A stretch of DNA of 64,000 nucleotides, from assembly GCA_043812195.1 (NCBI GenBank), contig JBDRML010000045.1, forward strand, positions 972 to 64,971, in the 5' to 3' direction. A program made the position numbers and the translations under genes. This DNA comes from Candidatus Woesearchaeota archaeon. Its GTDB lineage: Archaea > Nanobdellota > Nanobdellia > SCGC-AAA011-G17 > PNOQ01. The notes beneath the pieces are model-generated. The model had not been told where the DNA came from. It ran no database searches and saw only the letters and a list, made by a program, of their open reading frames with translations. This document shows positions 3,037-52,482 of the stretch, one piece after another (the first letter of the stretch is position 1; each line of letters opens with the position of its first letter).

Positions 3037-4008
3037 ATGGATATAGACAAGCTGGACTCAAAGATTTTAGCTGTTCTAGATGAAGATGCAAGGTTGCCAG
3101 AAGCTGCTATTGGTAAAAAAGTTGGAACAAGCAAACAAGTAGTAAGATACAGATTAAACAGATTTAAGGAAAGAAAAATAATTGATAATTATTACACAAT
3201 GTTAGATGTAGGAAAATTGGGATTTGACTCCTACTATGTTTTTGTTCAATTAACCGGGCTAAATTCAGAAGAAGAGAATAAAATTTATCAAAAAATACTA
3301 AAACTTCCTCAGATTGCTTGGTTGGTTACAGGCGTTGGGAGATGGGATGCAGTACTCTTGTTTTGTGCTAAAACTATAGCAGATTTTAATGGGCAATTAG
3401 AAGATTTGAAAAGACTTCTAGGATCACATCTTCACGAGTACACTTTTACAACACTTATTCAAGCAGAGCATATCAGCTATAAGTTTCTAAGACCCTCTGC
3501 CAGCGAATCATTAAAAACAACACCAAAAGGTAAAATTTATTCTCTTGATGAAACTGATAAAAAAATTCTTCAAATAATAAACCAAAATGGGCGGATGGCT
3601 ATAACTGAACTTTCAGAACAAACAAAATTACCCTTACATACGGTTCATCATAGAATAAAAAAATTAAAAAAAGAAAAACTAATTCAAGGATTTAGACCAA
3701 AAGTAAATATTCATAAATTAGGAATGCAGTGGCATCTTCTTTTAATAAAATTCAATTCTGTTTCTGAAGAGAGAATTAAAGGTTTTATAGAATATTGTAA
3801 AAGACATGAACACGTTTATTACGTTACTAATACAGTTGGAATATACAATGTGATGTTGGATGTTCATGTAAAGGACACAGAAGAATTTAGAAAATTTCTT
3901 TTTGATATTAAAAATTCTTATGAAGATGTAATTCTTCTTTATGAATCTATGTTAGTATTTGAGGAATTAGCTCTAACTTATGTTCCACCAGTTATTCTTA
4001 ATGATTGA
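3037..4008 (+). CDS. Tandem Lrp/AsnC-family transcriptional regulator
   Basis: Two winged-HTH modules (LDSKILAVLDEDARLP...; DKKILQIINQNGRMAITELSEQT), each followed by a RAM-like domain. Confidence 0.65.
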   Translation: MDIDKLDSKILAVLDEDARLPEAAIGKKVGTSKQVVRYRLNRFKERKIIDNYYTMLDVGKLGFDSYYVFVQLTGLNSEEENKIYQKILKLPQIAWLVTGVGRWDAVLLFCAKTIADFNGQLEDLKRLLGSHLHEYTFTTLIQAEHISYKFLRPSASESLKTTPKGKIYSLDETDKKILQIINQNGRMAITELSEQTKLPLHTVHHRIKKLKKEKLIQGFRPKVNIHKLGMQWHLLLIKFNSVSEERIKGFIEYCKRHEHVYYVTNTVGIYNVMLDVHVKDTEEFRKFLFDIKNSYEDVILLYESMLVFEELALTYVPPVILND

Positions 4009-4012
4009 ATTT

Positions 4013-4885
4013 TTATTTGGCACTTAGTTTTATCAAATCTAACCATCTATTCTCTCCTAATTCTAAACTAACTCCTGCTCTTTCAGAAGGGACTTCATCA
4101 GTGGTAGAATGATTTTCTATAAAGTTGTGTTGGATAATTATTGCAGTCATCAGAATTGGAGCAGACCATATGGCTTTTAAACCTCTAAAATCTATAACTC
4201 TATCTTTAATCTTCATAAAAACAGTTTCAATTCTATAATTGTGTATTTTTGTCTTCCTTACATTTTGTATTTTATGCTCTATTGTTAAGCCACCCAACTT
4301 ATTGGAATAGAAGAGTTTTCTAAATGCTCTCGGATAAAAAACTCCTGCATCTGTCTGTATATATTTAGGCTTTCCTTTCTTTACAGACTTTATAAGAAAT
4401 TCTTGGGCTTCAATAGGATTTGCAGATAGAGAATAATGAAATCCAGTTATTAGTCTTGTATCCCAATCAAGACAACACCAAAACCTATCTAACCTACCTT
4501 CTCTATTGATCAAAGTTTCATCTGCATAGAAGCTATTTCCTAAGTTATAACCTTGTTTTTCTATGAATTTATGAACTTTCAAAGTATATCTTCTAACCCA
4601 ATCCAAAACAGAAACGTGGCTTACTTTATGGCTTAGATGCCTCTTCAATTGGTTCCTCATTTTCCTACTTGATAAATTAGAGACATACATATCAATAGAC
4701 ATTGTAATAATCTCAGGTTTATTTCTCATTCTGTAAAATCCATCATCGTTTGTGAAATATTTGTGGCAATCTTTACAGAAATATTTTTGAATTTTCCCTC
4801 GGTGTTCTGTTTTTCTAAAGCCTTTTTTTAGAAAATTCTTGCCTGAACAATGTTTGCACTTAATCATACCTATATTCAGGTACAT
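4013..4885 (-). mobile_element. DDE transposase with N-terminal zinc ribbon (IS6/IS1595-like IS element ORF)
   Basis: CKHCSG...CKDCHKYF zinc ribbon, then YADETLI...LDWDTRLITGF...QTDAG consistent with a DDE catalytic core. Terminal inverted repeats were not identified. Confidence 0.55.
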
Positions 4886-14545: not shown

Positions 14546-16059
14546 CTTACTTTCATCAACTCCTTTCTCAATTCATCAGATAAAAACGGCCTTGCATCAT
14601 ATTTCAAAATTCTTTTCTCAATTTTAATTCCTGTTTTTTCTCTAATTAATCTACCTAATTGTCCAGTTAAATTATTTTCAACTAACACTACATTCTTAGC
14701 TTTCAAAATCTCTTTTTTAATTTGTTCAGACAAAGGCATCATATACAAAACCTGTAAAAACTTAAAATCCAAACCTTCAATAGCATCTAAAATAGCACCC
14801 TTAGTAGAACCCCAACCAATAACCAAATTCTTACTATTCTTTTTACCATAAATCTTAATCATCTCAAATCTTTTAGCAACTCTTTTAATCTTAACATATT
14901 TTTTTAATCTATAAATAGCATTTTTCTCAGTAATAGAAGCATCCTCAGTTGTATTTCCATGTTTATCATGTTCATAACCACTAGCTTTAACAATACATTC
15001 ACCAGGAACTTTTCTATTAACTTTAACTTTCAAAGCTTTCTTAGCTTTTCCATCAAAACTAAATTCAGATTCAGCTAAATGTTTATCAGACAATAAAATA
15101 CTTAAACAACCAAATTTTTCAGATAAATAAAAAGCTTCATTAGTTTTTTCAATAGCCTCAACAGGATCACCAGGAGCAATCACAACTCTAGGAAACTCTC
15201 CATGCCCGCCTCTTAAAGCAATATTCAAATCACCTTGTGAAGTATAAGTAGGAACACCAGTTCCAGGACCAGGCCTTGCAGCCAAATAAACAACTAAAGG
15301 AATCTCACTCATACCTTGTAAACTCAAACCTTCACACATCAAATCAAAACCTCCTCCAGAAGTTCCAACCATCGTTCTAGCACCAGAAAAACTAGCACCC
15401 AAACCTGCATTCACAACAGCAATTTCATTTTCAGGTTGAAACACCATAAAACCATTTTTAATCTGTTTAGCAGCCAACTCATGTAAAACTCCAGTAGCAG
15501 GAGTCATAGGATAAGCAATATACAAATTTATCTCAGAATTCACAGCACCAATGGCAACTGCTTGAGATCCAGACATAATATTAATCTTATTCTTTAATTT
15601 TTTCAAACTAAATATTTTTTTCTCAGCTTCAAAACCCTTATCCGCAGCATTAATAGATTTTTTATTATTCAATTCTTTTTTAATCTCATCAATCAAAATC
15701 TTCTTATCAAATCCCAATATCTTAATTAAACATCCAGCTAATGCAACATTTAAATTTCTACCATACTCCAAAAAATCATCAGGTCTAATAATAAATCCTC
15801 CTTTTTTCAAATCTTTTTTATGAACTTTAACAGTATTATTATCCATAGCTATAATGCCATCTATTTTACTTTCATAACTTCCAACTCTTTTGTCAGAAAT
15901 ACTCAAAATATTAAAATTATGTCCACCACGAATTATTGAAGGATAATCTCTATAATTAAAAGTAAAATATCCTTGATTAATCATAATCTTAGATACAATG
16001 CCGGAAATCTTATTAATTCCTTGACCAGCACTTCCACCTATAACAATATTTAATCTCAT
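14542..16059 (-). CDS. 2-oxoacid:ferredoxin oxidoreductase alpha subunit with fused gamma domain
   Basis: The N-terminal gamma domain (IVIGGSAGQGI) is fused to the alpha core. It overlaps the beta gene by 4 nt, so the two form an operon. Confidence 0.8.
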   Translation of the reverse strand: MRLNIVIGGSAGQGINKISGIVSKIMINQGYFTFNYRDYPSIIRGGHNFNILSISDKRVGSYESKIDGIIAMDNNTVKVHKKDLKKGGFIIRPDDFLEYGRNLNVALAGCLIKILGFDKKILIDEIKKELNNKKSINAADKGFEAEKKIFSLKKLKNKINIMSGSQAVAIGAVNSEINLYIAYPMTPATGVLHELAAKQIKNGFMVFQPENEIAVVNAGLGASFSGARTMVGTSGGGFDLMCEGLSLQGMSEIPLVVYLAARPGPGTGVPTYTSQGDLNIALRGGHGEFPRVVIAPGDPVEAIEKTNEAFYLSEKFGCLSILLSDKHLAESEFSFDGKAKKALKVKVNRKVPGECIVKASGYEHDKHGNTTEDASITEKNAIYRLKKYVKIKRVAKRFEMIKIYGKKNSKNLVIGWGSTKGAILDAIEGLDFKFLQVLYMMPLSEQIKKEILKAKNVVLVENNLTGQLGRLIREKTGIKIEKRILKYDARPFLSDELRKELMKVR

Positions 16060-39665: not shown

Positions 39666-40607
39666 ATGAAACCAATTATCTGGAGTCCAAGCAGAATCTC
39701 ATTAGCATCTCAATGCCTTAAAGCATATTTTTACAATTACCTCTCAAAAGAAAAATTCCCAACAAATGGAGAATTTGCAGCAGGGGTTCTATTACATAGA
39801 AAAATGGAAAAATTCTACAAAGAAGACAGAACCCCAAAATACAAATCCCCAGAATCATTCGCAAACGCATCTATGGCTCAATGGCAAAGATTTAATATTA
39901 ATACAGGAAAAAGCAGAGGGCAACCAATAAGATGGAGAAGTGAGAATCACCCATATATACTAAAACATATGATAGGAGAAGCTTGTAAAACAGTATACCC
40001 AGCATATGCTAATCAACAACCACCAATAGAAACAGAGTTTTCATTTGAGTTTTGTTTTGGCAATAGATTTTACAGAGGAAGTATAGATGAAATAAGAAAT
40101 AATGCAACTATAAGAGATCATAAATCAGACGGATTTGAAAGACCACAGACCTCACTAGATAATGATATTCAATTCACTAATTATGCCTTAGCAATATCTC
40201 AATATCTTTACGCAGATAAAAAACTTAGGAAAAAAGTTAATATATCAAAAGAATTAAAAGAAGAAATAAAAAATAAAGAAAAAATTATCTTACCAATAGG
40301 TATAGAAATCCATTATTTAAGAACAGGTAATATAAAAACAACAACAAGAAATGACTCACATTATTATGAACTAACAGAGATAATAGATGAACTAGAAGAA
40401 CAAATAAGAAGAAGAAATTTCAAAAGAAACCTTGGTAAACATTGTGACTTCTGTCTTTTCAATGAAGCTTGTGCAAGAGATACAAAACAATCAAATATTA
40501 CAATCCCCGAAAACCCACAATTACAATTATTTGCAACTTCAGAACCAAAACCAAAAAATATCAAGCAATTAAGATTATCATTTCCAAGAAAATCAAAAAA
40601 AGTGTAG
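39666..40607 (+). CDS. PD-(D/E)XK nuclease of the Cas4/RecB family (stand-alone)
   Basis: SPSRISLASQCLKAYFYNYL N-terminus and a C-terminal Cys cluster GKHCDFCLFNEAC. Its stop codon lies inside the left 14-bp direct repeat. Confidence 0.6.
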   Translation: MKPIIWSPSRISLASQCLKAYFYNYLSKEKFPTNGEFAAGVLLHRKMEKFYKEDRTPKYKSPESFANASMAQWQRFNINTGKSRGQPIRWRSENHPYILKHMIGEACKTVYPAYANQQPPIETEFSFEFCFGNRFYRGSIDEIRNNATIRDHKSDGFERPQTSLDNDIQFTNYALAISQYLYADKKLRKKVNISKELKEEIKNKEKIILPIGIEIHYLRTGNIKTTTRNDSHYYELTEIIDELEEQIRRRNFKRNLGKHCDFCLFNEACARDTKQSNITIPENPQLQLFATSEPKPKNIKQLRLSFPRKSKKV

Positions 40608-40616
40608 GCAAGTGTA
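40603..40616. repeat. Left 14-bp direct repeat GTAGGCAAGTGTAA (partial copy of the rnpB 3' end); putative attL
   Basis: Identical 14-mer occurs at 52548..52561, where it forms the 3' end of the RNase P RNA gene. Confidence 0.65.
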
Positions 40617-40705
40617 ACCTCTAAAGTAGTTTATACTTCTTTTGTATATTATAGTAATTTAGTTAATTATATAAATATTTCTGTTAGTATTAAAAGGGGT
40701 TAGAA

Positions 40706-46058: not shown

Positions 46059-46502
46059 TTATCTACATCCTTTGGAAACTTCGTAGTTATACGAGGTTTG
46101 TAATAATTCTTTTTGCATCTCTTTAGGAGCTTTTGTAATTTCCATGCCTGTTGTTAATGGTATTTCCTTTCTCTCTATTGCTTTTTGTATTTCTTTAGGA
46201 GCTTTTTCTAACATTAAAACTTGTCTAATCCATCCCTCTGAACATCCAATTCTTCTTGCTACTTCTCTAAATCCACCTTTTTTACCACGACCGCCTTGAA
46301 ACTGCGTATCACTACGCATTAATTTCTTTATAGCTTCTCTTTGGTCGTGGATTGTCATTGATTGTCTTGCTACTTCTGAATAACCTTTTGAGGGTCTCCC
46401 TTCTCCCCCTCTACCTCTTATTGAATCAGTTTTCGTAGCACTACGAATACTCAATAACTTTTTTATAGCTTCTCTTTGGTCGTTTATTTTTACATCAGTC
46501 AT
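46059..46502 (-). CDS. ParB-like HTH protein with an internal tandem repeat
   Basis: VARRIGCSEGWIRQVLMLEKAPKEIQKAI is ParB/Spo0J HTH-like. The segment DQREAIKKL...GRG...EVAR occurs twice, mirrored by a ~25-bp DNA repeat at ~46322 and ~46462. Confidence 0.45.
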   Translation of the reverse strand: MTDVKINDQREAIKKLLSIRSATKTDSIRGRGGEGRPSKGYSEVARQSMTIHDQREAIKKLMRSDTQFQGGRGKKGGFREVARRIGCSEGWIRQVLMLEKAPKEIQKAIERKEIPLTTGMEITKAPKEMQKELLQTSYNYEVSKGCR

Positions 46503-46679: not shown

Positions 46680-47063
46680 TTAATCATTTCTCAAAACCTT
46701 ATAAGCCCTGTATTGCTTTTTTCTCCAGTTGCGCTTGCTTATTTCATAAGCTCTGCCATCTTGAAAATTAATTAAGATTACAGAACAATTCCATAATTCT
46801 TGATGCTTGTAATCACTGAATCTTCCCCCTATCCAGTAATATCCATCATCACCATCAAATTCTTTTCCTATTATTTCTTCCAAAAAACATACAAGATCAT
46901 AAATTGTTTTTATTTTTAGATATTCATTATAATATTTGCTATCCATATTAATAATTAAACTGTCCTGCACATCAATACATTCGGCTGGAAAATTCTTGTG
47001 CCCTTTTCTCTTTTTTCTAAATGGGCAGATTCTTATTCCTAGTTCTTTGCTCCATTCTTTCAT
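46680..47063 (-). CDS. Hypothetical protein (element-borne)
   Basis: 127-aa ORF. Confidence 0.35.
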   Translation of the reverse strand: MKEWSKELGIRICPFRKKRKGHKNFPAECIDVQDSLIINMDSKYYNEYLKIKTIYDLVCFLEEIIGKEFDGDDGYYWIGGRFSDYKHQELWNCSVILINFQDGRAYEISKRNWRKKQYRAYKVLRND

Positions 47064-47590
47064 GATCTCACCTTTTCTTTAATTAATATATTCCATGCAA
47101 AATTCTTTTCTGGTTTTTTAAGATTTAATCTATCAATTGGTTCTATTACAACTGGCAACCATCTGGGTTTGGAATATGTTGCACCTTGTTGATTTCTGTA
47201 ATGTTTGCCTTTATACTTAATTAATTTTATTTTATCATTTCCTTTTTCATGCTTTTTTAAATTACATTTCCTGAAAAAAATCCTTCTCTCATCCAGTAGT
47301 TCCCAAAACGATTGTTTAAATTCTTTTGAAACATTACCGCACAAATAAAGGTTTAAATTTGGAAATCCTATAAATTCATTGCCTTTATCATTTAAATGCT
47401 CTTTTAATTTGTGAAAAGTTGGTTTTTTATTATTTACAATAAATTTTATCATTGATTGTTTTATTTGTTCTATATTCTTTTTCATGTTTCTGTACCTCCT
47501 TCTTTTTCTTTTTTGTTTCCTATAAGCCCAATCAAAACTAAAACAAAGGCTAAAATTCCTAGAATGTAATATGCAATCAACAGCATCCAA
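47060..47590 (-). CDS. Hypothetical basic protein (element-borne)
   Basis: 176-aa ORF; the true start is probably the internal MKKNIEQ. Confidence 0.35.
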   Translation of the reverse strand: MDAVDCILHSRNFSLCFSFDWAYRKQKRKRRRYRNMKKNIEQIKQSMIKFIVNNKKPTFHKLKEHLNDKGNEFIGFPNLNLYLCGNVSKEFKQSFWELLDERRIFFRKCNLKKHEKGNDKIKLIKYKGKHYRNQQGATYSKPRWLPVVIEPIDRLNLKKPEKNFAWNILIKEKVRS

Positions 47591-47703
47591 TTTGATTTTA
47601 TGATTGTGTTAAACTCTTCAATTATATACGAAAATGCCAAGATTATGCTGGCTAACCAGAACAAAAACATTAATGCTATTCCAAACCAAAAAATCGGTTT
47701 CAC
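47482..47703 (-). CDS. Small membrane protein
   Basis: 73 aa with two TM helices. Confidence 0.35.
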   Translation of the reverse strand: MKPIFWFGIALMFLFWLASIILAFSYIIEEFNTIIKSNWMLLIAYYILGILAFVLVLIGLIGNKKEKEGGTET

Positions 47704-47939
47704 TCTTCAACCCTCAGAAAACCAAGCAAAGATTCAAATATAATTTCTTTGTGTTTATCCTTTTCAACATACATGTTCAATTCTGTTTTCCCAATTTCCA
47801 ATTCCTTTGAATTTTTGAGTGAATGCAATGTTATGAGAAAAAAAGCATTGCTGTCTTTAATCTGTTTTACAGCTTCTTCTTTTGCTTTTGCTATATTCTT
47901 TTCTGTTGATTTTATTTCCCAGAATGTTTTGTATTTCAC
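47700..47939 (-). CDS. Hypothetical protein
   Basis: 79-aa ORF. Confidence 0.3.
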   Translation of the reverse strand: MKYKTFWEIKSTEKNIAKAKEEAVKQIKDSNAFFLITLHSLKNSKELEIGKTELNMYVEKDKHKEIIFESLLGFLRVEE

Positions 47940-47984
47940 TTATTGTACCTCCTTGCTATCTTTTTTGTACAAAAATATCGGGAT

Positions 47985-48262
47985 ACTCAATTGTGCTTTT
48001 GGCACGTGGCTGGCTGACCATGAGATACCCCGATATCTCAGATCTGAGATTATGAACCAGCCACTACAAGGGAGAAGTAGAGGCTGGAAATGGGTTATGT
48101 AATTGATGGCAAGCATTAGATTATAAGCCCACTTCATCGGAGGTGAAGGCTGACAAAACCTATTTCTCAATGAAGCAGGCTTAGGATGTAGCCTGAAAAA
48201 AAGTGAAAGTGGCAAATCCTTCCACTTAACAGGACTACCCCACATGCGAGTATTAATATGAG
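47985..48262. ncRNA. Candidate structured non-coding RNA of unknown class (GC-rich, multiple hairpins) inside the element
   Basis: GC well above the flanks. Complementary pairs include GTGGCTGG/CCAGCCAC, palindromic TCTCAGATCTGAGA, CAGGCT/AGCCTG, AAGTGG/CCACTT and ATATCGGG/CCCGATAT. Overlapping ORFs translate to P/W/S-rich low-quality peptides. Confidence 0.4.
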
Positions 48263-48264
48263 TT

Positions 48265-48450
48265 TTAGGTGTCATCATCTATCTCCTTATTAAAAACGGC
48301 GTTAACACTATTCTTTAGCTCTTTTTTGGCGATTAATTGTTGTTTAACCCAATACTTGTAACGGCATGAATCTGAGCAAAAGCGTGCATTTCTCTGGCTC
48401 CAAGAATCTATTTTTTTCGAACAATTTAAGCAAAATCCAACATTTACCAT
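48265..48450 (-). CDS. Small zinc-ribbon protein
   Basis: CLNCSKK...CSDSCRYKYW. Confidence 0.4.
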   Translation of the reverse strand: MVNVGFCLNCSKKIDSWSQRNARFCSDSCRYKYWVKQQLIAKKELKNSVNAVFNKEIDDDT

Positions 48451-48477
48451 TTTGATTTTTTATACTTAAATAAGAAA

Positions 48478-48540
48478 ACACCCTGACAACCCTGACAATC
48501 CTGACATTTGCGTCAACCTTGTCAACCTTGTCAACCTATT
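48478..48540. repeat. Iteron array: 3 x CC(C/T)TGACAA, then 3 x TTGTCAACC in inverted orientation, at 9-bp spacing
   Basis: Sequence acaCCCTGACAACCCTGACAATCCTGACATttgcgTCAACCTTGTCAACCTTGTCAACCtatt lies immediately 3' of the primase-helicase gene. Confidence 0.7.
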
Positions 48541-48547
48541 TCCTAAT

Positions 48548-50119
48548 TTAAAGTCTTTGGACGTCACCCCCATTTTCGCTTTTTTGATGCTTTATTCCTT
48601 TCCAGCATTGTACTCTTTGCTTAATTCCTTCAATCTCTAATTGCGGTCTGTAATCTTCGACTCTAATACTTCTTTGCAAATCCCTATGAAATGTGCCCTC
48701 TGAAAGTGGTGGATAACTCTTTTCCCTACAATAATCAGTGTAATGTGTAAACAATTCTCTTTTTTGCTCAAACGATTCAGGTGAAATCTTTATACAATCC
48801 ATAATAAATGCCTTTACACTATCGGACATTCGAATATATTCTTCTCTAACTTCCTTCACTGATTTTGCAGTACTGAAATCTTTGTTATCCAAAAGTCTCT
48901 TCAAACCGATAATAGCCCAATTTAAAATTCCAGATAACTCAGATTCTGTTGTTAATTTTGATAATAAATCCTTGTTAGCACTAGATCCGATAAATTGATT
49001 TGGAAAATTGATTATGATCCATCTTCTAAAAAATGCATCCGAATCATCGGGAGTTTTAGGAACTGCATTACAACTAAAAATCAATTTTGCGTAATTATCA
49101 AAGAAAAACTCATCCTTAAATTTTCTTTCTGCTCGTATGCTGTCCTCTCCTGTCAATGCTTTAAATATTCCAGTTTCTTTCAGCTCCGCTGAGGATAAAT
49201 CAGCATAAATATTAGCTAATTTCCCAAACAAAGATGACACCGAAAACCGATTTATACACAGTTGTTGCAAAGGTATTGCACTAATATTCTGATTTCCTAA
49301 AAAATATCGTAATACATTCAACAAAGTAGATTTACCGTTTGCCCCAACACCAACAAACATTATAGCTTTATGAATATTATATTTTTTGAATAATACATAA
49401 CCAAAAATTTCCTGAATTATATTATGTGTATCCTCTGGCAAAATCTGTTTTAAAAATTCTTCAAACTTATTGCATTTAGATTCTGAATCAAAATCCACAG
49501 GTATTTTGTTGAAAAATATTATATCAAAGTTATGTGGCTCTACTTCCATTGTATTTAAATCCAAAATCCCATTATTCAAACATATCTTATAAATCGGTTC
49601 AACAATTTTAATTCTATTTTTGTATGATGATCTCCTAATATGTGCCAACGTTTCATTTACAACGTGAATCGACGATAATCCACCAAGCCCTTTTTGAATA
49701 AATTGTGCAATTTTAATTTCTCCATAAGGAACATAAACACCACTTTCATAAACAAAAATCTCATCTGTGTCCTGAACAGTAAACAAATAAAATTTATTCA
49801 TACAAAGGGCAGATAGCCTATACAAAGCCTCTGAATTTTTTGTGTCTTTAGCATTCAACATGGATTTTATTTTTTGGAATTCCTGCTGTACACTTTCTTG
49901 AACATCATCTGCTTCAAGAGAATCCAATATTTTATCAAAGTCTATAAAAAAACCATCAGTTTTTTCATTTAATATATTTACCTGATGCATTAAATCATCT
50001 TCACTTTTTGCAAATCTTATTTTGTTTCTAATTCTATTTCTTTCTGAAACTGCCCATTCCCTAGTATGGGGTAATATTTTATTTTCAACAATTTGTTTTA
50101 TCTGAATCAAATCTGCCAT
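48548..50119 (-). CDS. D5-like / P4-type primase C-terminal domain + SF3 helicase (replication initiator)
   Basis: Walker A VGVGANGKST, a Walker B region and overall primase_Cterm/D5_N-like architecture; 523 aa. Confidence 0.75.
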   Translation of the reverse strand: MADLIQIKQIVENKILPHTREWAVSERNRIRNKIRFAKSEDDLMHQVNILNEKTDGFFIDFDKILDSLEADDVQESVQQEFQKIKSMLNAKDTKNSEALYRLSALCMNKFYLFTVQDTDEIFVYESGVYVPYGEIKIAQFIQKGLGGLSSIHVVNETLAHIRRSSYKNRIKIVEPIYKICLNNGILDLNTMEVEPHNFDIIFFNKIPVDFDSESKCNKFEEFLKQILPEDTHNIIQEIFGYVLFKKYNIHKAIMFVGVGANGKSTLLNVLRYFLGNQNISAIPLQQLCINRFSVSSLFGKLANIYADLSSAELKETGIFKALTGEDSIRAERKFKDEFFFDNYAKLIFSCNAVPKTPDDSDAFFRRWIIINFPNQFIGSSANKDLLSKLTTESELSGILNWAIIGLKRLLDNKDFSTAKSVKEVREEYIRMSDSVKAFIMDCIKISPESFEQKRELFTHYTDYCREKSYPPLSEGTFHRDLQRSIRVEDYRPQLEIEGIKQRVQCWKGIKHQKSENGGDVQRL

Positions 50120-50696: not shown

Positions 50697-51035
50697 ATGG
50701 AAAAAAAGAAGCTGAAAAATTATGGAATAGACAGCACACCAATAGATATAGATGAAAAAACATGGGCTATCTTTGACTTATGTTCCAAAGAAAAAAATAT
50801 ATATCAGATTTCTAAAGAAATTGGACTTGCTTATAAAAACACGATGGCAAGGCTAAAATCTTATGAAAAAAAGGGATGGTTGAAAAAACATCAAATTCAA
50901 ACTGAAAGAACGCAAACCATCTATAAGTTAACTCCAAAGGGGATATCATTTTATAAATTAGTAAAAGATATCTTTACAAAAACAACAGACGAAACAGGAA
51001 GAAAGATTGACATAAAAAAGATTAGAATAAATTAG
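50697..51035 (+). CDS. Winged-helix transcriptional regulator
   Basis: IYQISKEIGLAYKNTMARLKSYEKKGWL is wHTH-like. Confidence 0.5.
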   Translation: MEKKKLKNYGIDSTPIDIDEKTWAIFDLCSKEKNIYQISKEIGLAYKNTMARLKSYEKKGWLKKHQIQTERTQTIYKLTPKGISFYKLVKDIFTKTTDETGRKIDIKKIRIN

Positions 51036-51282: not shown

Positions 51283-52482
51283 TCAACTAATTTTATTCAT
51301 AATCTCTTTTAACCTTTCAGATTTTACTTCTTTCATTAACAATTCAACAAAAGACTTAATCTGGCTTTCTGATTCCTTAAATTCCATAGCTCCTTTGTAA
51401 TCTAAGGGTCTTCCACACTTACTACAAAACTTATTAGTTGCAGAATTTTCATAACCACAAACAGCACAGGTTTTAGGTTTGGTTTTATCTCCATTCTGTT
51501 TTTCATTGATTAATTTACCTGCTTTCTCCAATTGCTTTCTATCAACATCAGCTCCAGATAAATGAATATAAACTTTAGGCATTTGGCTATCTGCACTCCA
51601 ACCAGCTATGATCCTTAATTCTGCTTCAGTAAAACCATCCCCTGCTAAATGTGTTAATCTACTATGTCTTAACAAATGTGGATATATTTTCTTGTTAAGT
51701 TTAGAATTTTTGGCATATTTATTTAGAATAGTATGCAGACCATTAAAACCAAGTCCCATATCCAAATGAGAACCTATATTAGTCCATAAAGGAGCTTCTG
51801 GATCATTCTTGCTTGGATGTTGGTTTAACCAACTAGTTAAATCTGGCACAGAATCTAACAACCTAATTCTCCTACTGCCTGTCTTTCCAGAAACAACAAC
51901 CACAGCTCCATATTCATCTAAAGCAACATTCTTTAATCTTACATTTAGCCATTCACCACTCCTACAACCACTCTCATATAAAGTAAATACCAATGCCTTA
52001 TCTCTAAAGTTATCTGCACAGCCAACTAGCTTTAATATATCCTCTTTAGTAAAAATATCATCTGGCACTTTAAACTTCTTATTTCTTTTTATCTTAATAT
52101 CTTCAACAACTTCTGACTTACCTATTCTCTTAAAAAAAGTTTTAATTGATAGTTTTATTTGTTCTATTGTTTGTTTGGAATACATACCTTTTCTCTTAAA
52201 TCTCTTACTTTGAACATTATATCCATTCTCCAATAAGTCTATTATAAAATCATCTACAGCCTTTTTTGTTAATTGATCTACTTCCTTCCCTGTGTTTCTA
52301 AATAACATAGATAAATTCTTTATGTTAATGCTTCTTGAATGAGCAGATAACCCATTTTTTAATAAAGTCCTATTGTATTCTAACATAGTTTTTCTTTGCT
52401 TTTCTGTTAGTCTATCATCTTCTATTTGTTTTTTGATTCTGTTCTCTTTATTTCTAATGTCTTTATCTCTGGCAATTTCCAT
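51283..52482 (-). CDS. Tyrosine recombinase / integrase with C-terminal zinc ribbon
   Basis: Catalytic region HLLRHSRLTHLA...KVYIHL (R..H..Y) and C-terminal CAVCGYEN...CSKCGRPL. Confidence 0.85.
   Translation of the reverse strand: MEIARDKDIRNKENRIKKQIEDDRLTEKQRKTMLEYNRTLLKNGLSAHSRSINIKNLSMLFRNTGKEVDQLTKKAVDDFIIDLLENGYNVQSKRFKRKGMYSKQTIEQIKLSIKTFFKRIGKSEVVEDIKIKRNKKFKVPDDIFTKEDILKLVGCADNFRDKALVFTLYESGCRSGEWLNVRLKNVALDEYGAVVVVSGKTGSRRIRLLDSVPDLTSWLNQHPSKNDPEAPLWTNIGSHLDMGLGFNGLHTILNKYAKNSKLNKKIYPHLLRHSRLTHLAGDGFTEAELRIIAGWSADSQMPKVYIHLSGADVDRKQLEKAGKLINEKQNGDKTKPKTCAVCGYENSATNKFCSKCGRPLDYKGAMEFKESESQIKSFVELLMKEVKSERLKEIMNKIS

Follow-up and report, generated by a model that had tools for sequence, protein, structure and literature searches.

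The window analysed here is a 64,000-nt stretch of the genome of a Candidatus Woesearchaeota archaeon, with a background GC content of about 30-31%. An Rfam search of the window placed on its minus strand the archaeal SSU rRNA (61626-63096), the LSU rRNA (57453-61378) with a group I intron in it (59170-59481; RF00028) and the RNase P RNA (52548-52847), while ARAGORN and Rfam both located a tRNA-Ala at 61515-61585, also on the minus strand. The gene for a tyrosine integrase (51283-52482, minus strand) adjoins the 3' end of the RNase P RNA gene, and the last 14 nt of the latter (GTAGGCAAGTGTAA, 52548-52561) are repeated directly at 40604-40617. About 10 nt inside each of these att-like copies we found the 12-nt AGTTTATACTTC in inverted orientation, and together the direct repeat and the inverted AGTTTATACTTC delimit an integrated element of ~11.9 kb. 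Its genes include the tyrosine integrase, an SF3 helicase, a ParB-like gene and a resolvase, and these, with the 14-nt att-like direct repeat, support the placement by an earlier note on this DNA of the region described below within an integrated element. The insertion site of the element, the 3' end of the gene for RNase P RNA, may be of interest for the question of integrase target choice.

The replication protein of the element is a D5-type SF3 helicase (48548-50119, minus strand; Pfam DUF5906, 4.6e-23, and D5_N, 5e-9); a wHTH protein is encoded at 50697-51035. Right behind the helicase stop codon lies a block of iterons (48466-48551), in which three copies of ACCCTGACA and three copies of TTGTCAACC in inverted orientation form an 86-nt imperfect inverted repeat with a folding z-score of -4 to -6; this block would be the likelier replication origin. 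It is followed by p61 (48265-48450, minus strand), which encodes a treble-clef zinc-ribbon protein (Pfam DUF2116, E 3.5e-4; PHROG 2308, E 4e-7), and then by the region that is the subject of this report, which is intercistronic between p61 and p79, about 270-280 nt downstream of the helicase gene and 200 bp from the iterons. The downstream neighbour p79 (47700-47939, minus strand) has a strong Shine-Dalgarno sequence, AAGGAGGU, 7 nt before its GUG and is the first gene of a tightly packed p79-p73-p141-p127 cassette, the order in the operon being helicase, iterons, p61, candidate, p79, p73, p141 and p127. On the same strand, beyond a 177-nt gap after p127, are the ParB-like and resolvase genes, to which the operon perhaps extends. 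A database search with p79 (79 aa) returned as its sole match the protein itself (NCBI ABIH25_05710, Candidatus Woesearchaeota archaeon). Both p79 and p127 are thus ORFans, and p141 comes close to being one.

Composition, folding and strand of the candidate region

The GC content of 200-nt windows rises to as much as 0.455 at the candidate versus about 0.30 in its surroundings, and with 250-nt windows the candidate holds the top value of the whole window outside the rRNA and RNase P RNA genes (0.46, z = 4.0). This figure is reached by just 0.002% of non-RNA windows and slightly exceeds the GC content of the RNase P RNA (0.448). Folding of 47970-48275 gave z-scores of -3.86 (plus strand) and -5.72 (minus strand), with 0 of 100 shuffles folding as well, and for 47971-48266 the corresponding scores were -2.7 and -5.8, with a minimum free energy (MFE) of -98.3 kcal/mol on the minus strand. 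The 57 kb upstream of the rRNA operon were also scanned in 97 tiles of 296 nt, among which 47953-48248 was an extreme outlier against a null with a mean of -0.58 and a standard deviation of 1.05, the worst tile elsewhere scoring -4.29; with sliding windows of 120 nt the signal was confined to about 47940-48300. The next island of high GC, at 15117-15518 and inside a long conserved open reading frame, is unstructured (z +0.66), which shows that GC content alone is insufficient for strong folding. The candidate also folds significantly on both strands when DNA energy parameters are used (z -4.6 and -3.2), and an origin of the structure at the RNA level is therefore not proven.

The earlier note had called the region GC-rich relative to a genome of ~30% GC and highly structured, and both descriptions are borne out, by the GC peak of 0.46, by a minus-strand z of -5.8 and by the top rank among the 97 tiles. 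All of the complementary pairs that it had listed by eye were recovered as well: the 8-mers ATATCGGG (47975-82) with CCCGATAT (48029-36) and GTGGCTGG (48006-13) with CCAGCCAC (48057-64), the palindrome TCTCAGATCTGAGA (48036-49; 16 nt if extended to 48035-50), CTTCA (48132-36) with TGAAG (48144-48), CAGGCT (48176-81) with AGCCTG (48190-95), and AAGTGG (48207-12) with CCACTT (48222-27).

The strand of the candidate is most likely minus. By the same folding method the RNase P RNA of the window scored -2.6 in sense and -0.7 in antisense and the LSU group I intron -5.3 and -1.35, whereas two coding controls ranged from -0.6 to +2.4 on either strand; the sense/antisense asymmetry of the candidate resembles that of the two genuine RNAs. 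The genes flanking it are all on the minus strand and tightly packed. Read in this direction the sequence has U runs at 48196-48202 (U7) and 47971-47975 (U5), and inside the candidate the plus strand is devoid of T runs of five or more; against the minus reading count the internal position of the U7 tract, which has no counterpart on the plus strand, and the fact that the plus strand is the purine-rich one. The folding asymmetry, the G.U pairs in the second hairpin (see below) and the minus-strand flanking genes are the grounds on which we say that the candidate behaves as a minus-strand RNA.

As delimited here, the candidate is a putative structured RNA of ~295 nt (47971-48266, minus strand) that runs from ~48265 to the U5 run and comprises five hairpin domains (H1 to H5) and one unpaired linker, with helix pair probabilities in the minus-strand fold that are mostly 0.75-0.99. 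H1 (48188-48238) has an outer stem GUAG.CCUG/CAGG.CUAC around a hairpin AAGUGGAAG/CUUUCACUU (pair probabilities 0.89-0.99), and this hairpin leads into the U7 tract. H2 (48124-48183) is a long hairpin of 16 + 2 + 5 bp that contains, by our own reading of its paired strands, three G.U pairs where the plus strand would have A.C mismatches; at its apex is an iteron-like 9-mer, UUGUCAGCC, with one mismatch to both iteron types, a statistically weak resemblance. The linker (48088-48123), 36 nt long, unpaired and AU-rich, separates the two structured halves. H3 (48057-48087; CCAGCC.CUAC/GUAG.GGCUGG, pair probability 0.98-0.99) bears a C/U-rich loop of 9 nt, UUCUCCCUU, complementary to the Shine-Dalgarno-like AAGGGAGAA, and H4 (48035-48050) is the 16-nt perfect palindrome ATCTCAGATCTGAGAT, whose fold is a hairpin with 6 bp in the stem and 4 nt in the loop. 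Finally, H5 (47977-48034) is a three-way junction (pair probability 0.75-0.87) with a closing stem of 9 + 4 bp (AUCGGGGUA.CUCA/UGAG.UAUCCCGAU) that is followed by the U5 run. Two of the hairpins, H1 and H5, thus have U runs behind them, and 19 nt past U5 come the ribosome-binding site AAGGAGGU and the GUG start of p79. A scan for bacterial-type terminators flagged neither hairpin-plus-U module.

An archaeal promoter for the candidate is not convincing, and this speaks against the RNA reading. The RNase P RNA gene has a TTTATAAA box that ends 21 nt upstream of its start, and another such box lies upstream of the 16S gene, yet between 47850 and 48520 no box of this type with at most one mismatch was found on either strand. 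The best TATA-like sequence, TTTAATAA (48287-48294, minus strand), is a weak one with two mismatches to the TTTATAAA box; it ends 21 nt before ~48265, a spacing equal to that of the RNase P RNA promoter. Lacking a good TATA box, the candidate is likelier to be co-transcribed with the operon than to be an independent gene.

Known RNA families and the search for relatives

Searched against Rfam 15, which covers RNase P, SRP and 5S RNAs, group I and group II introns, riboswitches, self-cleaving ribozymes and RNAs of phages and plasmids, the region gave no match at gathering score, only noise at E <= 10 on segments of 901 nt and 331 nt, and no match for the candidate at E <= 1 across the whole element, while the same search recovered the rRNAs, RNase P RNA, tRNA and group I intron of the window. 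ARAGORN found no tRNA or tmRNA in the candidate, its sole match in the window being the tRNA-Ala. The impression in the earlier note that no RNase P, SRP, tRNA or group II signature is present is thereby upheld, and the Rfam search that it had proposed as a check yields no family. The possibility that it had raised of a degraded piece of rRNA or rnpB is rejected: the candidate has no similarity to the window's own copies of rRNA, RNase P RNA or group I intron from which a fragment could have been captured, and as regards a group I intron the RF00028 model was silent here even at E <= 10.

Several more specific identities were considered, and none was supported. An intron in a protein gene is at odds with p79 having its own Shine-Dalgarno sequence and an in-frame TAA right before its start, and a type III toxin-antitoxin RNA, with its ~36-nt tandem direct repeats before the toxin, with the lack of tandem direct repeats. 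The 8-mers CCAGCCUC, GUGGCUGG and CCAGCCAC could on paper pair as either 1:2 or 2:3; however, a fold forced into the 2:3 pairing (GUGGCUGG:CCAGCCAC) reaches -16.7 kcal/mol versus -49 kcal/mol for the MFE fold and is thus much less stable, which leaves a classical attenuator switch unsupported on energetic grounds. An antisense RNA to the resolvase mRNA is not indicated either, since the similarity (12 nt of identity, or 17/18 with a gap, E 0.72) is at chance level, and in a duplex scan the candidate did no better than an rRNA tile.

We then have the question of homologs. No relative of the candidate was found by blastn in phage and plasmid collections, by a search for four exact 22-24-mers in IMG/VR viral contigs or by a search for one exact 22-mer in JGI metagenomes. 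From genomes, viral contigs and metagenomes we assembled 91 loci with relatives of the helicase (37-58% identity), and neither nhmmer nor blastn detected similarity to the candidate in them; a single 31-nt match in one locus (L015) proved to be the end of a coding gene. Two covariance models built on the two structural halves (R1 and R2) and run over 750 kb returned self matches alone. Beyond the helicase and integrase, these 91 loci share with the element just two weak resolvase matches (29-34% identity), and scans of viral contigs with p176 and p127 were empty. Among 77 helicase relatives a structured segment downstream of the helicase gene was present in 7.8% versus 5.2% of controls, which is no enrichment. 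A look for GC islands at the equivalent position in relatives gave none that was convincing. Nor is there a second copy of the candidate within the 64 kb. By these sequence comparisons the candidate belongs to a unique cargo segment of the element.

With no homolog found, the claim of an RNA rests on one sequence, and as a singleton the candidate falls short of the usual standard for naming an RNA family, that is, homologs with compensatory changes. The proposal of a novel ncRNA in the earlier note accordingly survives in part: it is the best reading and the sequence matches no known family, but homologs and covariation, the absence of which the note had named as refuting its proposal, were both missing as far as searched.

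Competing explanations

An ordinary protein-coding gene deserves attention because the minus strand has an open frame of 112 codons (47940-48278) that spans the structured region exactly. It starts 14 nt inside the end of p61, stops on the base preceding the p79 GUG, and is thus packed as tightly as the real genes downstream; its AUG has an AAGGAG 5 nt ahead of it, and a frame open for at least 110 codons arises in just about 1% of dinucleotide shuffles. The dismissal of the overlapping open reading frames in the earlier note was therefore too quick. If genuine, the frame would be an ORFan gene for a basic protein of 112 aa with hydrophobic stretches, translationally coupled to p61 and p79, whose mRNA is GC-rich and structured incidentally; its neighbours are also ORFans, and some of the small ones likewise have flat codon-position GC and low composition scores. 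Even so, we consider this very unlikely. The folding z of -5.8 lies about 5 standard deviations away from the coding tiles of the window, and GC at codon positions 1, 2 and 3 is flat (0.41/0.43/0.42), at 42% in a genome of 31% GC. The predicted protein contains 1 Glu in 112 residues alongside 12 Pro, 5 Trp and 5 His, and its score for amino-acid composition, -0.134, falls at the low end of what the small open reading frames of the element show (-0.13 to +0.05) and is nearer to the mean of spurious frames (-0.23 +/- 0.11) than to that of long real ones (+0.085 +/- 0.05). Log-odds of codon usage did not discriminate for any of the small genes. A search of 5.8 billion proteins returned no match, not even to itself, although p79, p127 and p141 of the same NCBI record are in the database, which implies that the depositor's gene caller did not call the frame. 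Pfam and PHROGs also gave no match, and the AlphaFold2 pLDDT is 43 (weak evidence, being from a single sequence). Dual use, as a translated and structured spacer, is possible.

A different kind of explanation places the function in the DNA: the region could be part of an origin or a single-strand initiation (sso-like) site, with hairpins in the unwound DNA loading helicase or primase and iterons binding the initiator. Its location near the iteron block and ~270 bp beyond the end of the SF3 helicase gene suits such a role, as do the significant folding of both strands with DNA parameters, the loop-less perfect palindromes (16 nt at 48035-50 and 14 nt at 47962-75) and, at the H2 apex, an iteron-like GGCTGACAA with AACCTATTTC behind it, an arrangement similar to the last iteron and its flanking sequence. 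Replication origins, however, are usually AT-rich, and the candidate is a GC maximum; the iteron-like match is at chance level, a zinc-ribbon gene stands between the candidate and the iterons, and the strand asymmetry of folding is like that of the window's true RNAs. A close precedent is the essential origin of pRN1, a stem-loop of ~100 nt that falls within the 166-232 bp directly following the primase-helicase gene and is conserved in its plasmid family; like the candidate, it is a structured stretch on a small mobile element of archaea, placed 3' of a replication gene of the SF3 helicase type (PMC4234260, PMC3869888). Unlike that origin, the candidate has five hairpins and 46% GC, begins ~280 nt past the helicase stop with an intervening gene and shows neither conservation nor enrichment of a structured segment in the 77 helicase relatives, and the iteron inverted repeat at 48466-48551, right behind the stop, fits the pRN1 pattern and position better; a pRN1-type origin is thus not indicated for the candidate, and a cis-acting DNA element of any kind strikes us as unlikely. 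Less probable still is a non-functional remnant, either decayed foreign DNA that was structured and of higher GC or a MITE-like insertion between two genes. A composition unlike the rest of the element, the failure of every search to find relatives, and imperfect terminal inverted repeats of ~20 nt (47975-47995 versus 48241-48261) can be cited in its favour. We saw no target-site duplication in the flanks and no second copy in the window, which speaks against a MITE, and the well-defined local hairpins are not the single long foldback of a MITE; decayed foreign DNA, for its part, is opposed by the finding that the region resembles neither rRNA nor RNase P RNA nor introns and matches no Rfam family, and decay in a 31% GC genome should have eroded both the GC content and the helices.

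The explanation that we favour is that of a lineage-specific structured RNA of ~230-295 nt, on the minus strand (~48265 to 47971) in the replication/maintenance operon of the element, to which we assign a probability of roughly 45%. It is the best reading: in GC content the region is on a par with the genuine RNAs of this genome, and it folds with a z-score as extreme as theirs or more so and with a like asymmetry between sense and antisense.

Proposed role and comparison with known systems

If such an RNA exists, it would be co-transcribed in a transcript that runs from the helicase gene and p61 to p79, and would probably work in cis, as a control element between cistrons. Oligo-U is a termination signal for archaeal RNA polymerase, and the hairpin-plus-U-tract modules might stop or attenuate the enzyme and so set the expression of the ORFan cassette downstream. 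The internal U7 would be expected to end many minus-strand transcripts before H2-H5, which weighs against the RNA reading. The stable GC-rich body perhaps persists as a processed small RNA, and its exposed C/U-rich UUCUCCCUU and UCACCUCC might base-pair with Shine-Dalgarno sequences, for instance that of p79 (AAGGAGGU). A bolder version, that the candidate founds a new structured-RNA family of DPANN integrative elements, excised from the replication-operon transcript and controlling gene expression or copy number of the element, is doubtful, though conceivable.

In comparing the candidate with systems already described we found it to be a member of none of the GC-rich archaeal ncRNAs, the P4 CI RNA or the pRN1 origin. 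Klein, Misulovin and Eddy (PNAS, 2002) reportedly used composition to find GC-rich ncRNA genes in AT-rich archaea, the RNAs of which are said to be chromosomal, conserved between species and confirmed by Northern analysis. The candidate is likewise a GC island in an AT-rich archaeon, with good folding and a GC content on the level of the rRNA and RNase P RNA genes, and the absence of coding signal in the Klein-type ncRNAs belongs to the same detection logic by which we liken it to them; it differs from them in lying on a mobile element, in having no homolog and in being known from sequence alone. Satellite phage P4 supplies a second parallel. Its CI immunity RNA, ~69 nt long, is excised from an operon transcript, processed by RNase P and pairs with the seqA and seqC sites, controlling transcription termination of the element's own genes. 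Like P4, the present element combines an integrase with a D5/alpha-type primase-helicase and would carry a small structured RNA, here the candidate, in its operon, but no target repeats were found at the candidate, and it has no sequence or structure similarity to the CI RNA.

The sso and ssi sites of rolling-circle and IncQ plasmids are orientation-specific, structured, non-coding segments of 150-300 nt beside the replication module, and are defined by their function in converting single-stranded to double-stranded DNA and by conserved motifs (RSB, CS-6). The candidate is akin to them in being highly structured, orientation-specific and next to a replication module, a likeness drawn from these traits. 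The Rsa RNAs of S. aureus, conserved bacterial RNAs that are transcribed on their own and whose targets have been verified, have C-rich (UCCC) loops (PMC2790875). They resemble the candidate in that its unpaired C/U-rich UUCUCCCUU (in H3) and UCACCUCC complement Shine-Dalgarno sequences, for example the AAGGAGGU of p79; in contrast to theirs, this complementarity is short and generic.

To the best of our knowledge, almost nothing is known about the regulatory and structural RNAs of DPANN archaea and their mobile elements. What the present analysis offers now is a well-delimited candidate with a proposed strand, ends and helices, in the form of one sequence without relatives. Should it be real, it would add a new family to a kind of RNA that is known in general, the structured RNAs of mobile elements, and if the bolder version is true archaea would have in it an equivalent of the RNA-based immunity of satellite phage P4, carried by an element whose own target is the gene for RNase P RNA. 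A real RNA of ~300 nt in the replication operon would provide a first handle on how the mobile elements of DPANN archaea are controlled.

Putative attachment sites of the element

The sequence GTAGGCAAGTGTAA, 14 nt long, occurs as a direct repeat at 52548-52561 and 40604-40617 (E = 0.04 by BLAST), and the RNase P RNA gene ends with exactly these 14 nt. Each copy is accompanied, about 10 nt inward, by the 12-nt sequence AGTTTATACTTC in inverted orientation (52526-52538 and 40627-40639), and the integrase gene adjoins the RNase P copy of the repeat. The two copies of GTAGGCAAGTGTAA look like the attL and attR sites of a mobile element of ~11.9 kb, inserted at the RNase P RNA gene, in its 3' end. 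This gene seems to be an unusual target: none of the papers listed by a literature search mentions integration into RNase P RNA.

Iterons, promoter motifs and coding content

Directly 3' of the stop codon of the D5-type SF3 helicase gene (48548-50119, minus strand) lies a block of iterons (48466-48551), comprising three copies of ACCCTGACA and three of TTGTCAACC in inverted orientation, which together make an 86-nt imperfect inverted repeat with a folding z of -4 to -6. This block is probably the replication origin of the element or an operator.

The stretch running from the zinc-ribbon gene p61 (48265-48450) through the candidate structured RNA (47971-48266) to the ORFan p79 (47700-47939), all on the minus strand, seems to be without a strong internal promoter, because the TTTATAAA box, taken from the RNase P RNA and 16S promoters of the same genome, had no match with one mismatch or fewer on either strand of 47850-48520 (670 nt); the window mean at this threshold is 3.9 matches per kb per strand. 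With regard to the rRNA operon itself (57453-63096), the LSU rRNA gene carries a group I intron at 59170-59481, minus strand (Rfam RF00028, 82.6 bits), and no 5S rRNA gene was detected by Rfam beside the operon, including its flanks, or elsewhere in the 64-kb window.

Further along the element, the 176-aa ORF listed mechanically at 47060-47590 (minus strand) probably encodes a 141-aa protein starting at Met36; its database copy aligns to residues 36-176. With this start, most of the apparent overlap with the gene of a 73-aa membrane protein disappears. A ParB-HTH-like ORF (46059-46502, minus strand) contains an internal duplication, in which DQREAIKKL…GRG…EVAR is present twice, and the tile within it at 46177-46472 was the second most structured (z -4.3) of the window's 97 segments of 296 nt, scored over the 57 kb upstream of the rRNA operon.

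tRNA-adjacent integrases in related elements

In two related elements, drawn from metagenome-assembled Woesearchaeota and Aenigmatarchaeota genomes, the homologous integrase adjoins a tRNA gene and not RNase P RNA (tRNA gene and integrase at 3307-3392 and 3870-4694 in locus L004, and at 828-930 and 1047-2024 in L007). These tRNA neighbours are consistent with a family whose target sites are the 3' ends of genes for structured RNAs.
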